From Thermoplasmata archaeon (GTDB lineage: Archaea > Thermoplasmatota > Thermoplasmata > GCA-020350865): 64,000 nucleotides of DNA. The stretch covers positions 3,875,765 to 3,939,764 of the forward strand of contig CP070751.1 of assembly GCA_020348445.1 (NCBI GenBank). The letters run 5' to 3'. How positions within the stretch are numbered: the first letter of the stretch is position 1; every line of letters starts with the position of its first letter. The notes under the pieces are model-generated. The model searched no databases. It had not been told where the DNA came from and worked only from the letters and a program-made list of their open reading frames with translations. Made by a program: the position numbers and the translations under genes. This document shows positions 18,360 through 24,193 of the stretch, in pieces.

Positions 18360-19136
18360 ATGATCGTGATAAGCGAACGCATCAACGGATTGTTCAAGTC
18401 CGTTGGCAAAGCCATTGATGGTAGAGATGCAAACGCCATACAACAACTGGCATTGGACCAGGTAAAGAAAGGAGCCGATATATTAGATTTGAATACCGGA
18501 CCAGGCATGGATAATGAGCCTGAGGTTATGGAATGGCTCGTGAAAACTATTCAGGATGTAACGGATGTCCAGCTTTCCATTGATACCCCAAAACCCGAAG
18601 CCATGGAGGCTGGACTTAAGGCCGTGAACAAGAAAGCCATGCTGAATTCTACTACAGCGGAGCAGAAAAGGATGGAGGCCCTTTTTCCGCTTGCCAAGGA
18701 GTATGATGCCGAGATAGTATGCCTGACATTGGATGAGAAGGGCATTCCCAACGATGCAATGAGGAGAAACGAGCTTGCCATGCTCATGATTACCCAGGCC
18801 ATGGAATACGACATTTCAGTTGAGAATATCTACCTCGATCCGTTGATTCTTCCTGTGGGTGCGGCACAGAATCAGGGTCCTGCTGTAATCGAGGCAATAA
18901 ACATGTTCAAGATGCTATCTGATCCCACACCCAAAACAGTTGTAGGATTGAGCAATATTTCCAATGGAGCAAAGCAAAGATCTCTTTTAAATAGGACTTA
19001 TTTGGCCATGTTAATGGGTGCCGGTCTTACCGCTGCAATCATGGATCCAAATGACCTGGATTTGATGCATATAGCAAAAACTGGAGATATATTACTAAAC
19101 AAGAAACTTTATGCCCATGATTATCTCCAGGTTTAG
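18360..19136 (+). CDS. acsE: Methyltetrahydrofolate:corrinoid methyltransferase (AcsE/MeTr-like pterin-binding barrel)
   Basis: ERING, LDLNTGP, MEWLV, IDT, NST, DPLILP, KTVVGLSNIS and RSLLNRTYLAM align motif by motif with Moorella MeTr as recalled. Confidence 0.8.
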   Translation: MIVISERINGLFKSVGKAIDGRDANAIQQLALDQVKKGADILDLNTGPGMDNEPEVMEWLVKTIQDVTDVQLSIDTPKPEAMEAGLKAVNKKAMLNSTTAEQKRMEALFPLAKEYDAEIVCLTLDEKGIPNDAMRRNELAMLMITQAMEYDISVENIYLDPLILPVGAAQNQGPAVIEAINMFKMLSDPTPKTVVGLSNISNGAKQRSLLNRTYLAMLMGAGLTAAIMDPNDLDLMHIAKTGDILLNKKLYAHDYLQV

Positions 19137-20661: not shown

Positions 20662-20849
20662 TAGCTCCGGGCCGAAGAAATACGATATAATTGATATGTC
20701 ATTATATTTCTAGGCAAGGGGCTACTCTGGATGACGACTAGAAAAAGATAAAGAGTAGCTCCGGGCCGAAGAAATAAGACCTAATTGATGTTCTATTATA
20801 TTTCTAGGCAAGGGGCTACTCTGGGGGAAGACTAGAAAAAGATAAAGAG
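20662..20849. repeat. Two tandem 94-bp units downstream of tRNA-Gln(CTG); each a hairpin module capped by tRNA 3'-end copies
   Basis: TAGCTCCGGG at 20662 and 20756 (and TAGCCCCGGG at 20850); inverted copies GGGGCTACTCT at 20718-28 and 20812-22; inner stem GCC..AGAAATA/TATTTCT.GGC. Confidence 0.9.
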
Positions 20850-20951
20850 TAGCCCCGGGTGGATTCGAACCACCGCCTAAACCTTTTGGCATCTCCCTCC
20901 GCTGGGCAACCCCTCACAAAAGGTTTTAGGGTCATCCCAAAACTCGGGGTC
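20850..20951 (-). other. tRNA-like element: intact T arm and acceptor 3' strand, anticodon/D region replaced by a long hairpin
   Basis: 20842-20875 matches 20973-21006 at 33/34 nt; 13-bp hairpin 20876-88/20917-30; CGGGGTC at 20945-51 can close the acceptor stem. Confidence 0.7.
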
Positions 20952-20980
20952 GTCCTGCTCACTCGATGATAAATAAAGAG

Positions 20981-21054
20981 TAGCTCCGGGTGGATTCGAA
21001 CCACCGTCACGGGATCCAGAATCCCGCATGATTGACCACCTACAATACGGAGCT
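20981..21054 (-). tRNA. tRNA-Gln(CTG), archaeal type (A1-U72, A73), no encoded CCA
   Basis: AGCTCCG/CGGAGCT acceptor; CGGGA-TTCTGGA-TCCCG anticodon arm; GGTGG-TTCGAAT-CCACC T arm; weak D stem (U10/U25 and U13/U22 unpaired). Confidence 0.92.
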
Positions 21055-21233: not shown

Positions 21234-22934
21234 TTAAGTTGTTTTTTGTTGCTGCTGTTTTTGAATCTTGGCCCATGTGTCCCTCAATCCGACGGTTCTG
21301 TTGAAAATCAGCTTCTCTGAGTTGGAATCTGGGTCCACACAGAAATAACCAAGTCGCTCGAATTGGATTCGATCCAACGGTTTAAGGTTCTTTACTGCAG
21401 GTTCTATCTTACATGATGTTAGAACTTCGAGGGAATTAGGATTAATGAAATCCTTAAAGTCCGCATCCTTATGTCCCGCGGGGTCCTTCTCTGTAAAAAG
21501 CTTGTCGTACAACCTAACCTCGGCATCCATTGCGTGGCGAGCTGAAACCCAATGCAATGTGGATTTTACTTTACGACCATCAGGTGCATTGCCCCCTCGC
21601 GTATCGGGATCCACGGTACATCTGAGCTCAACGACCTTCCCATTCTGTTTAATAGCCTCCTTGCACTTAACAAAGTACGCATATCTGAACCGCACCTCAC
21701 GACCTGGTGCTAAGCGGTAGAACTTCTTGGGAGGTTCCTCCATAAAATCCTCTTCCTCGATGCAAAGCTCCCTGGAAAAGGGTACCTTTCGAGTCCCTGC
21801 TGATGGGTCCTCTGGATTGTTTACAGCCTCCATCTCCTCCACCTTATCATCGGGGTAATTTTCAATAACCACCTTGAGCGGTTGAAGTACACCCATGAAC
21901 CTTGGGGCTGTTTTATTCAAATCTTCCCTTATACAATATTCAAGAAATTCGAAGTCAACCATACTGTTTACCTTGGCCACGCCGATTCGCTTGCAGAAAT
22001 TTCTAATTGCAGCTGGAGAATAACCTCGTCTTCTCATTCCGCTTATCGTGGGTAACCTGGGATCATCCCACCCATTGACGTGACCCTCATCCACCAATTG
22101 TTTGAGCATACGCTTGCTCATTACAGTATAGGTAATATTCAACCTGGCGAATTCAATTTGTTGTGGATGATAGACCTCTATTTGATCCAAGAACCAATCG
22201 TATAAAGGTCTGTGATTCTCGAACTCTAAAGTGCAGATGGAATGCGTGATGTTCTCGATTGAATCTTCAAGCCCGTGTGCCCAGTCGTACATGGGATAGA
22301 TGCACCATTTTTCACCTGTGTTGTGATGACTCGCATGTAGGATTCGATATACAATTGGGTCCCGCATATTCATATTTGGGTGCGACATGTCTATCTTGGC
22401 CCTAAGAACCTTTTCACCATCTCCAAACTCACCAGCCCTCATTCTTGTGAACACATCAAGGTTTTCTTCTATTGACCTATCACGATAGGGACTTTTCTGT
22501 CCGGGACTTGTAAGGGTTCCTCTTGTTCTGCTGATTTCATCTGCAGTTGAATCATCTACGTATGCCTTACCTCTTTTAACCAACTCAACAGCATAATCAT
22601 ACATTTGATCAAAGTAATCCGAAGCAAAAAAGAGCCTATCCTCCCAGTCAAATCCAAGCCATCTTACATCCTCGATTATAGATCTAACATATTCCTCTTC
22701 CTCTTTTGCTGGATTGGTATCATCGAATCTGAGATTGCACTTGCCCTTGTAATCCTCTGCTATGCCAAAGTTCAGGCAGATAGACTTTGCATGCCCAATG
22801 TGCAGATAGCCGTTGGGTTCGGGTGGGAACCTTGTATGAACTCGACCACCGTATTTATTCGTCCTTAGGTCTTCATTGATTATATCGCGAATGAAATCGT
22901 GAGCCTCTGCCTCTTCACTGGGCATATCTTTCAC
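21234..22934 (-). CDS. glnS: Glutamine--tRNA ligase, bacterial type (no YqeY domain)
   Basis: [79 protein letters not shown] and [11 protein letters not shown]; colinear with E. coli GlnRS over the full length. Confidence 0.96.
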
Positions 22935-23435: not shown

Positions 23436-23469
23436 GTAAAAAGCCCCGGCCCCGAGAAACAGATTCTAT

Positions 23470-23535
23470 CAGCCCCGGCCTCTTCGTGCTTAAGAACCCA
23501 ACATATCCAAGCATAACACGAAGAGAAAGGGGCTG
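23470..23535. repeat. Downstream hairpin module of tRNA-Gln(TTG)
   Basis: CAGCCCC/GGGGCTG outer stem; CTCTTCGTG/CACGAAGAG inner stem; core CTTAAGAACCCAACATATCCAAGCATAAC; 97 bp from the tRNA 3' end. Confidence 0.88.
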
Positions 23536-23566
23536 TTTCGTTTCTCTACAATTTAAATTAGAGAAA

Positions 23567-23637
23567 CAGCCCCGGCCAGAATCGAACTGGCGCCAAGAGA
23601 TCCAAAGTCTCTGATGCTACCTCTACACCACGGGGCT
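23567..23637 (-). tRNA. tRNA-Gln(TTG), 71 nt, G73 discriminator
   Basis: AGCCCCG TG GTGT AGAGGTA GCAT C AGAGA CTTTGGA TCTCT TGGC GCCAG TTCGATT CTGGC CGGGGCT G folds as a full cloverleaf. Confidence 0.92.
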
Positions 23638-23666
23638 ATTTGGTTGGAACATTAATTCAGTCAAAT

Positions 23667-23845
23667 AGCCCCTTCGTAGTAAGAAAAGCTTTGGGTTCTT
23701 GCTAGGTTTTCTTTTCTTCCTACCACGGGGCTATTTTACCACCACGGGGCTTCTTAGTTTTATTTATACTTTGATACGAATCCCCTTAGCATTAAGAAAA
23801 GCGTTCAAATTCTAATGGGAATTCTTTTCTTAATACCACGGGACT
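23667..23845. repeat. Two upstream hairpin modules of tRNA-Gln(TTG) plus a short extra 5'-end copy
   Basis: CCACGGGGCT copies end at 23732 and 23751, CCACGGGACT at 23845 (95 and 94 bp steps); inner stems AGTAAGAAAAG/CTTTTCTTCCT and ATTAAGAAAAG/CTTTTCTTAAT. Confidence 0.85.
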
Positions 23846-23875
23846 ACTTTACTTTTATTTATTCAATTCTACTTT

Positions 23876-23941
23876 CAGCCCCGGCCTCCTCGTGCTTAAG
23901 ATCCAAGCGTTTTTAAGCATAACGCGAGGGGGAAGGGGCTG
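23876..23941. repeat. Downstream hairpin module of the second tRNA-Gln(CTG)
   Basis: CAGCCCC/GGGGCTG; CTCCTCGTG/CGCGAGGGG inner stem; core CTTAAGATCCAAGCGTTTTTAAGCATAAC; 97 bp from the tRNA 3' end. Confidence 0.88.
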
Positions 23942-23972
23942 TTTCGTTTCTCTACAATTTAAATTAGAGAAA

Positions 23973-24043
23973 CAGCCCCGGCCAGATTCGAACTGGCGCC
24001 AAGAGATCCAGAGTCTCTGATGCTACCTCTACACCACGGGGCT
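23973..24043 (-). tRNA. tRNA-Gln(CTG), 71 nt, G73 discriminator; paralog of 23567-23637
   Basis: Identical to the TTG gene except at anticodon position 34 and one T-loop base; offset 406 bp. Confidence 0.93.
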
Positions 24044-24072
24044 ATTTGGTTGGAACATTAATTCATTCAAAT

Positions 24073-24165
24073 AGCCCCTTTGCAGTAAAAAAAGCGTTGG
24101 GATAGTGTTGTGTTTTCTTTTTTTACTACCACGGGGCTACTGCACTCTTAAACAACCTCGGGGCT
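24073..24165. repeat. Upstream hairpin module of the second tRNA-Gln(CTG) plus outer 5'-end copy
   Basis: AGCCCC at 24073; AGTAAAAAAAG/CTTTTTTTACT stem; CCACGGGGCT ends 24138 (95 bp step); CCTCGGGGCT ends 24165. Confidence 0.85.
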
Positions 24166-24193
24166 TATTTGATGCAAGAGAATGCATAAACAA

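Follow-up and report, generated by a model that had tools for sequence, protein, structure and literature searches.

A tRNA-Gln pair beside a bacterial-type GlnRS gene in a Thermoplasmata archaeon, and an apparent two-route stage in Gln-tRNA formation

The window analysed here, a 64,000-nt stretch (positions 3,875,765 to 3,939,764) of contig CP070751.1 from an uncultured Thermoplasmata archaeon, carries two near-identical glutamine tRNA genes, with anticodons UUG and CUG, just upstream of an intact, bacterial-type gene for glutaminyl-tRNA synthetase (GlnRS, gene glnS). The pair is probably the substrate set of this GlnRS, standing beside an intact route in which glutamyl-tRNA synthetase (GluRS) and GatDE serve a second class of tRNA-Gln. 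Across Thermoplasmata these two classes, which we call type I (the GluRS/GatDE class) and type II (the glnS-linked class), are told apart by their D arms. The window belongs to a 5.16-Mb single-contig genome, the close relatives of which are metagenome-assembled genomes (MAGs) labelled Thermoplasmata or ‘Methanomassiliicoccales archaeon’.

Reviews up to 2022 place GlnRS in no archaeon and put this down to the poor fit of archaeal tRNA-Gln, with its A73 and A1-U72, to GlnRS of bacterial or eukaryotic origin (PMC9499178, PMC8762117, citing Tumbula et al. 2000), and in a literature search that did not extend to subscription journals we found no published description of an archaeal GlnRS or of its tRNAs, whether from Thermoplasmata, Asgard or other archaea. 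Here and in the relatives the barrier to GlnRS has been crossed, and the loci reveal which tRNA features changed or stayed. As old-route, two-route and new-route relatives all exist, the hypothesis is directly testable, and natural, mutually compatible variants of GlnRS and tRNA are on offer for work on tRNA identity and orthogonal pairs.

The tRNA pair, its synthetase gene and the GatDE route in this genome

The features in the window that bear on the pair are as follows.

23567-23637, minus strand: tRNA-Gln(UUG), type II (ARAGORN; Rfam RF00005, 59.9 bits)
23973-24043, minus strand: tRNA-Gln(CUG), type II (ARAGORN; Rfam RF00005, 59.1 bits)
21234-22934, minus strand: glnS, bacterial-type GlnRS, 566 amino acids, intact (TIGR00440, 755 bits)
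20981-21054, minus strand: tRNA-Gln(CUG), type I (ARAGORN; Rfam, 54.5 bits)
20848-20960, minus strand: tRNA-like relic (26-nt match at 96%; no ARAGORN or Rfam call)
23638-23760, minus strand: leader of the UUG gene, stable hairpin (z -4.0)
24044-24166, minus strand: leader of the CUG gene, the same hairpin with compensatory changes (z -4.2)
23440-23566, minus strand: trailer of the UUG gene, short and long hairpin (z -2.5)
23846-23972, minus strand: trailer of the CUG gene, long hairpin with compensatory changes, its first 40 nt identical to the UUG trailer (z -4.0)

Both genes of the pair exceed the Rfam tRNA gathering score of 29 bits, each is 71 nt long, and they lie on the minus strand at a spacing of 406 bp. 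ARAGORN and the Rfam alignments bear out the geometry given in an earlier note on this DNA, including the two differences in 71 nt: position 34 (U or C) and one base of the T loop, which reads UUCGAUU in the UUG gene and UUCGAAU in the CUG gene. Both genes have A1-U72, G2-C71, C3-G70, G10, U13.G22, G37, A38 and G73 (the alignments agreeing with that note on A1-U72, G37, G10 and G73), an acceptor stem AGCCCCG/CGGGGCU, a 7-nt D loop (AGAGGUA) followed by GCAU, and a variable loop of 4 nt; CCA is encoded in neither. The cloverleaf parse found no mismatched pair in the four stems, and the 7-nt anticodon loops, CUUUGGA in the UUG gene and CUCUGGA in the CUG gene, have U33 together with U35 and G36.

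The glnS gene lies between this G73 pair and the A73 gene at 20981. Its product scores far above the TIGR00440 cut-off of 426 bits, contains the HIGH and VMSKR motifs and an acceptor unpairing loop, RGTLT, and is scored best by the Deinococcus-type model NF011291; among solved structures it matches 5BNZ (phmmer, E 2e-221) and the E. coli enzyme 1GSG/1GTR (E 8e-215), and it shares 66–74% identity with its counterparts in Planctomycetota and Chloroflexota. All 29 archaeal GlnRS in an 89-sequence tree group together in a single clade (SH-aLRT 99) among bacterial sequences, which fits a single capture. In E. coli the unpairing loop, with Leu136, opens the 1-72 pair (PMC2978374), and the conservation of this loop here fits the weak A1-U72 pair of the tRNAs.

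The other route is also represented: there is an archaeal GluRS gene, GatE occurs in two copies (685 and 565 bits) and GatD likewise in two (548 and 518 bits), each with an open frame, and type I tRNA-Gln genes are present for both anticodons. We looked for GatB in this genome and found none. Outside the window (G000 denotes this genome, C1 its contig) the relevant features are the following.

G000:C1:2877665-2879575 and 3727626-3729503: GatE genes
G000:C1:4116284-4117471 and 3724387-3725589: GatD genes
G000:C1:223989-224062 (L174:3989-4062), minus strand: tRNA-Gln(UUG), type I, with A73, U10 and a long D loop

Second, lower-scoring GatD/GatE copies also occur in several relatives that lack glnS. 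The type I gene at 20981 has A73, U10, U22 and a 10-nt D loop ending in CAA, and the weak D stem that the earlier note ascribed to it, along with A73 and U10, is seen in two mismatched pairs, U10.U25 and U13.U22. The type I UUG gene has C33 (loop CCUUGGA) in place of the near-universal U33, which its orthologue in relative G003 retains. The relic at 20848-20960, 131 nt downstream of the 20981 gene, consists of a T arm, acceptor 3' strand, A73 and trailer copied from that gene, joined to a 13-bp hairpin containing UUUUG and with a 5' strand GACCCCG; it is possibly a decayed type I UUG gene.

The flanks were duplicated together with the genes, as had been noted earlier. Between the UUG and CUG units the inner leader (-45 to -1) is identical at 42 of 45 positions and the inner trailer (+1 to +40) at 40 of 40, so that the near-identical core of leader, tRNA and trailer matches at 151 of 156 nt (97%); identity is lower further out, in the outer leader (63/76) and outer trailer (60/85). 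In the hairpin of the UUG leader the closing strands are GGGGCUA and a repeat of the 5' strand of the tRNA (AGCCCCGUGGUAG). In the UUG trailer a short hairpin immediately 3' of G73 is followed by a long one closed by CAGCCCC/GGGGCUG, in which GGGGCUG repeats the 3' end of the acceptor together with G73. Each G73 gene thus stands between stable hairpins (z -2.5 to -4.2) whose closing strands repeat its own acceptor strands, with compensatory changes between the units. The trailer module recurs in the genus, with the 5'-strand copy at about +32 and the 3'-end copy at about +91, and in relative G005 it has the A73 version of the strand, so the module tracks the discriminator base.

The earlier note had taken the duplication to be recent, and the relatives do not bear this out. 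G003 and G004 have the same order upstream of glnS, UUG proximal and CUG distal, with four differences between the copies, and the CUG gene of G003 carries an intron. The UUG/CUG pair is therefore older than this species, since these relatives share the arrangement with more diverged copies, and the near-identical 156-nt core here suggests that an older pair recently underwent gene conversion or was duplicated anew. Leader and trailer hairpins can be aligned across the genus at about 80% identity. In G002 only a CUG gene is present, identical to the one described here; a near-identical tandem copy could have collapsed in short-read assembly. Both anticodons may have been kept through conversion because CAA and CAG are used equally in this genome (12.2 per thousand codons each).

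Two tRNA-Gln classes and the loss of GatDE across Thermoplasmata

We parsed into cloverleaf parts the tRNA-Gln genes of 40 relatives, of loci around archaeal glnS in public MAGs and of further members of the class; these inventories come from BLAST or pattern matches in MAGs many of which are incomplete, some genes may be missed, and intron-bearing genes were left out of the counts. All 37 intron-free genes from 23 glnS-lacking genomes are type I, with a 9-nt D loop of the form AGNGGNCAA, ending in CAA and followed by UCAU or GCAU, from which the pair departs with its 7-nt AGAGGUA, there followed by GCAU; 35 of the 37 have A73. The type II genes, 41 of which adjoin glnS, have 7–8-nt D loops (AGNGGUA, AGNGGYUA or AAUGGCA) and an N22 that usually pairs with U13, and are split almost evenly between A73 (21) and G73 (20). 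In more than ten families there are loci in which a gene with such a short D loop lies no more than a few kb from glnS.

The two types have acceptor stem and anticodon loop in common, which implies that type II derives from archaeal tRNA-Gln by remodelling and did not come from bacteria. The D arm GUGU-AG..GGYCAA-UCAU of type I tRNA-Gln recurs in each of the 14 distinct tRNA-Glu genes recovered. Judged by sequence, the consistent change in type II is thus in the D arm, the part that type I tRNA-Gln has in common with tRNA-Glu. In bacteria GluRS is known to read the D helix (PMC9976931), and by analogy archaeal GluRS may do so too.

In a class-wide survey of 251 Thermoplasmata genomes we found glnS in 38. 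A short-D-arm pattern matched 47 genomes, including 32 of the 38 with glnS, although the pattern is so short that a reversed control matches about as often by chance. Many matches lie on the same contig as glnS, a few kb away. Outside families f9 and f17 the 11 matches in ten glnS-lacking genomes were one tRNA-Asp and ten that fall in no tRNA, and the matches in incomplete glnS-lacking f9 and f17 genomes are short-D-loop tRNA-Gln(UUG) genes. Six glnS-positive genomes gave no match: two f29 members have AAUGGCA, which the pattern misses, and one is masked; the type II gene of G001 is not fully readable, a stretch being masked with N. Among the 251 genomes we found the type II class in glnS-bearing families alone, for the most part adjoining glnS.

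Some of these families have lost the GatDE route. GatE was not found in 17 of the 38 glnS-positive genomes compared with nine of the 213 without glnS, three of these nine being incomplete f9 members (the unpublished G102 and G216, glnS-negative and GatE-positive, enter only the totals of this tally), and by family it is lacking in f9 (11/13), f20 (5/5) and f29 (2/2). In four glnS-bearing genomes, G012, G041, G042 and G053, we found none of GatD, GatE and GatB, so that GlnRS is there the sole route to Gln-tRNA; G041 (CP070724.1) and G042 (CP070767.1) are closed chromosomes. GatD and GatE were not found in G043 and G044 either. All intact tRNA-Gln genes recovered from the four genomes are type II, which points to this class as the probable GlnRS substrate. 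Decay of the old parts can be seen as well: G041 retains a 74-residue GatD remnant with three stop codons, and at the site where its sister L048 still carries type I UUG, with a mismatch in the T stem, G041 has a broken relic; f29 has a relic upstream of its type II gene, and in G003 both type I genes have acceptor-stem mismatches. The C33 of the type I UUG gene studied here belongs to the same picture. Relatives thus span three stages, GatDE only, both routes and GlnRS only, and the genome studied here, with glnS, GatDE and both tRNA sets, looks like an intermediate in route replacement. The proposal of the earlier note, two parallel routes or a replacement in progress, holds in so far as glnS, GluRS, two GatD, two GatE and both tRNA sets coexist; its basis in G73 and G10 is not supported, as set out below.

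Type II-style UUG genes arose in at least three ways: as a tandem copy in this genus, as a copy downstream of glnS in A73 families, and as a chimera in the L045-L059 clade, where the 5' part is identical to the type II CUG gene at 24 of 25 positions and the middle to the type I UUG gene at 34 of 38. Two odd tRNA-Gln-like genes, L007:2081-2156 (G020) and L025:1501-1574 (G035), encode CCA and show C33 and a mismatch at 1-72; one adjoins glnS, and the other immediately precedes a divergent GatE-like gene, with GatD next in line.

Several further tRNA genes were encountered outside the window. A bacterial-type tRNA-Gln(UUG) at G000:C1:1131962-1132035 (L173:5963-6036), with U1-A72, G73, G10 and an 8-nt D loop, lies in a P22-like head module, flanked by the portal and scaffold genes; the module further encodes a large terminase and the major head, head closure and ejection proteins, and its portal is only 22–26% identical to known phage portals. 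No counterpart turned up in 40 relatives, and the tRNA gene is either a provirus-borne tRNA that fits the imported GlnRS of its host or an assembly chimera. About 20 tRNA genes, several with introns and including tRNA-Glu(UUC), Asn and Asp, are packed into 3 kb at G000:C1:4640571-4643566, possibly a mobile-element tRNA array, and a tRNA-Glu(CUC) of bacterial look with an encoded CCA is found at G000:C1:1678782-1678857, on the archaeal chromosome. Finally, within the window, a stand-alone methyltetrahydrofolate:corrinoid methyltransferase-like gene (18360-19136, plus strand; NF005719, 304 bits) adjoins purH.

The discriminator base and the competing explanations

The earlier note had read G10 and G73 as co-adaptation of the pair to GlnRS. 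In glnS-lacking genomes almost every type I gene has G10, which is therefore ancestral; the derived base is U10, found among type I genes here, in L048 and, for CUG, in G003, and G10 was rejected as an adaptation. For G73 the picture is mixed. On the GlnRS tree it is restricted to one 14-row subclade (this genus and L045-L059) and L064, with f29 in addition, while glnS-linked tRNAs of f2, f9, f15, f17, f20, f21, f22 and f23 have A73, GlnRS-only genomes among them. Conversely, all tRNA-Gln genes recovered from glnS-lacking G038 and from G017, a closed genome that also lacks glnS, have G73. A comparison of N73 and N10 between relatives with and without glnS, as the earlier note had suggested, showed that G73 is not the norm without glnS (2 of 23 genomes), so the result which that note had named as a refutation did not arise. 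From its distribution the base was nevertheless dismissed as an indicator of glnS: GlnRS use does not depend on it, it also occurs where glnS is lacking, and we take it to be optional; the co-adaptation proposed for it stays unproven. Two observations speak for some benefit: where one genome holds both kinds, G73 is found in the glnS-linked genes and A73 in the unlinked type I genes, and the L045-L059 chimera carries G73 although its middle matches an A73 type I gene. G73 may have arisen later, within some glnS-bearing lineages, and may improve catalysis by GlnRS as in E. coli; an adaptive value for it is possible, though we consider it on balance doubtful.

The G017 genes themselves (L149, L172; G017:C1:367300-367730 and 1163250-1163670) have related introns of about 50 nt in the anticodon loop, and the CUG gene lies about 8 kb from a GatD-GatE pair.

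From the gene anatomy, glnS linkage, distribution, GatDE losses and relic decay observed above, we infer which enzyme charges which tRNA in this cell and what the D arm and G73 contribute. Thermoplasmata would have acquired glnS once from bacteria, with the type II class travelling with it and GlnRS charging type II directly with glutamine. Type II would retain its archaeal scaffold (A1-U72, which the unpairing loop could open, G2-C71, G10, U35, G36 and G37) and would have lost the D-arm signature, a D loop ending GGYCAA followed by UCAU, common to type I tRNA-Gln and tRNA-Glu, the two presumed substrates of a non-discriminating GluRS. This change may remove type II from the reach of GluRS, fit it to GlnRS, or both, and this would make GatDE dispensable. 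In this genome type II UUG and CUG would then work with GlnRS, and type I UUG and CUG with GluRS and two GatDE sets, whilst other families would have left the two-route state by losing GatDE, their type I genes decaying. The fuller account, that Thermoplasmata crossed the GlnRS barrier by remodelling the D arm of their own tRNA-Gln, that G73 came later in some, that several families independently dropped GatDE and that this genome is a stable two-route intermediate with partly insulated sets (G10/G73 in type II serving GlnRS, U10/A73 in type I serving GluRS-GatDE), is put forward tentatively, as falling slightly short of an even chance. If it is true, the genome offers a natural experiment on how orthogonal pairs of synthetase and tRNA evolve within a living code.

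Several points weigh against these readings. At a level of at least 85% in each group, we found no position fixed differently between the 29 archaeal and the 60 bacterial GlnRS, so co-adaptation on the protein side was rejected; the residue matching E. coli D235 is N here, and N is equally common among bacterial relatives. On these sequence comparisons any adaptation sits on the tRNA side only. The association of tRNA and glnS is probably one founding event, and the counts given above include kin and are not independent. Families f15 and f22 yielded only a type II CUG gene, and their GlnRS may serve one codon only or also charge type I. Furthermore, the tRNA-Gln of M. thermautotrophicus, a GatDE substrate, has an 8-nt D loop, and loop length alone need not block GatDE.

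If G73 and G10 together were the switch that makes a GlnRS substrate, A73 tRNAs being reserved for GluRS/GatDE, one would expect much of what is seen in this genome, G003 and L048, where linked genes have G73 and G10 and unlinked type I genes have A73 and often U10. Both bases belong to the E. coli GlnRS identity set (PMC1865053, PMC9976931), the chimeric gene acquired G73 despite a body from the A73 type, and A73 changed to G73 at least twice among glnS-linked tRNAs. However, G10 is present in almost all tRNA-Gln without glnS, A73 type II genes are the only tRNA-Gln recovered from G012, G042 and G053, which have no GatD, GatE or GatB, and the G73 of G017 and G038 brings its independent origins without glnS to two, against two to three with it; we regard such a switch as decidedly unlikely. 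It is also unlikely, if less markedly so, that there is no partition at all, both classes being charged by both routes, with type II traits as neutral founder marks beside glnS and the pair adding dosage. Cross-charging by GlnRS would be harmless, type II retains the GatDE determinant A1-U72 (PMC2330236), and protein-side adaptation was not detected in the comparison of 29 archaeal with 60 bacterial enzymes. Under such a scheme, however, one would not expect that GatDE-less genomes keep type II while type I decays, the reverse never being seen, that a type I-derived UUG gene was converted to a type II D arm, that the D-arm features lost are exactly those in common with tRNA-Glu, or that flanking hairpins and both anticodons were maintained through conversion.

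Two further explanations concern the origin and the service of the pair. The G73 tRNAs could have come from bacteria with glnS as a cognate cassette, since G73, G10 and the 7-nt D loop resemble bacterial tRNA-Gln, and one Chloroflexota locus (L090) has a tRNA-Gln adjoining a related glnS; its 7-nt D loop, AAUGGCA, is that of f29 type II, in a bacterial comparison that rests on few sequences, as a BLAST search with the Chloroflexota tRNA-Gln found a match in one further genome only. Against this, the acceptor stem AGCCCCG/CGGGGCU (A1-U72, C3-G70), G37 and A38 are those of the local type I genes, basal archaeal glnS lineages have A73, and only one of 60 bacterial loci has an adjacent tRNA-Gln, that one with U1-A72 and G3-C70. 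Co-transfer of the tRNA was rejected because the pair has the same acceptor stem and anticodon loop as type I genes of its own genome, and we give it next to no credence. Service of type II by the second GatDE paralogue instead of GlnRS would account for the two GatD and two GatE genes here and for the retained A1-U72, yet second copies also occur in glnS-lacking genomes with type I only, and type II is the sole class recovered from genomes without any GatDE, which makes it very improbable. Charging of the pair by GlnRS, beside a GluRS/GatDE route for type I, thus remains the explanation we prefer.

Comparison with known systems

In the E. coli system A37 belongs to the GlnRS identity set. That set further includes G73, U1-A72, G2-C71, G3-C70, G10, U35, G36 and U38 (PMC1865053), as well as U34/C34, with complex structures in PDB 1GTR/1QTQ. 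The Thermoplasmata system resembles it in having a close GlnRS homologue with a conserved unpairing loop and tRNAs with G73, a weak first pair, G2-C71, G10, U35, G36 and a 7-nt D loop. It differs in the reversed first pair (A1-U72 in place of U1-A72), in C3-G70, G37 and A38 in place of G3-C70, A37 and U38, in its archaeal host and in the replacement of G73 by A73 in many sister lineages. D. radiodurans offers a closer parallel for the first pair, as its GlnRS charges a tRNA-Gln(UUG) with A1-U72, G73 and G10 (PMC1865053), so that A1-U72 is compatible with a bacterial GlnRS; however, the archaeal enzyme is without the YqeY C-terminal domain, and the Deinococcus tRNA retains G3-C70.

GatDE reads A1-U72 and D-loop positions 19/20 of M. 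thermautotrophicus tRNA-Gln (PMC2330236, PMC2943598), and A73 is a feature of archaeal tRNA-Gln (PMC9499178), whereas the pair has G73. With the archaeal route through non-discriminating GluRS and GatDE the pair shares the same acceptor stem and A1-U72, and that route is kept here with the type I tRNAs; unlike its substrates, the pair has G73 and a D loop 2–3 nt shorter than type I of the class, and type II persists in relatives without GatDE.

Duplicated GluRS enzymes, as in Helicobacter pylori (GluRS1/GluRS2) and Acidithiobacillus ferrooxidans, split tRNA-Glu and tRNA-Gln between them by features of the acceptor or D helix (PMC9976931). There, as proposed here, a cell with two charging systems divides related tRNAs between them by features of the D arm and the first base pair, but the enzymes are duplicated, whereas here the tRNA is duplicated and the second enzyme came by horizontal transfer. 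In pylT-pylS cassettes a synthetase gene is likewise linked to a dedicated tRNA gene, and the physical linkage of synthetase and substrate tRNA genes across a lineage is common to both; the Thermoplasmata arrangement differs in that no new amino acid or codon meaning is involved, its product being Gln-tRNA-Gln, as in the old route.

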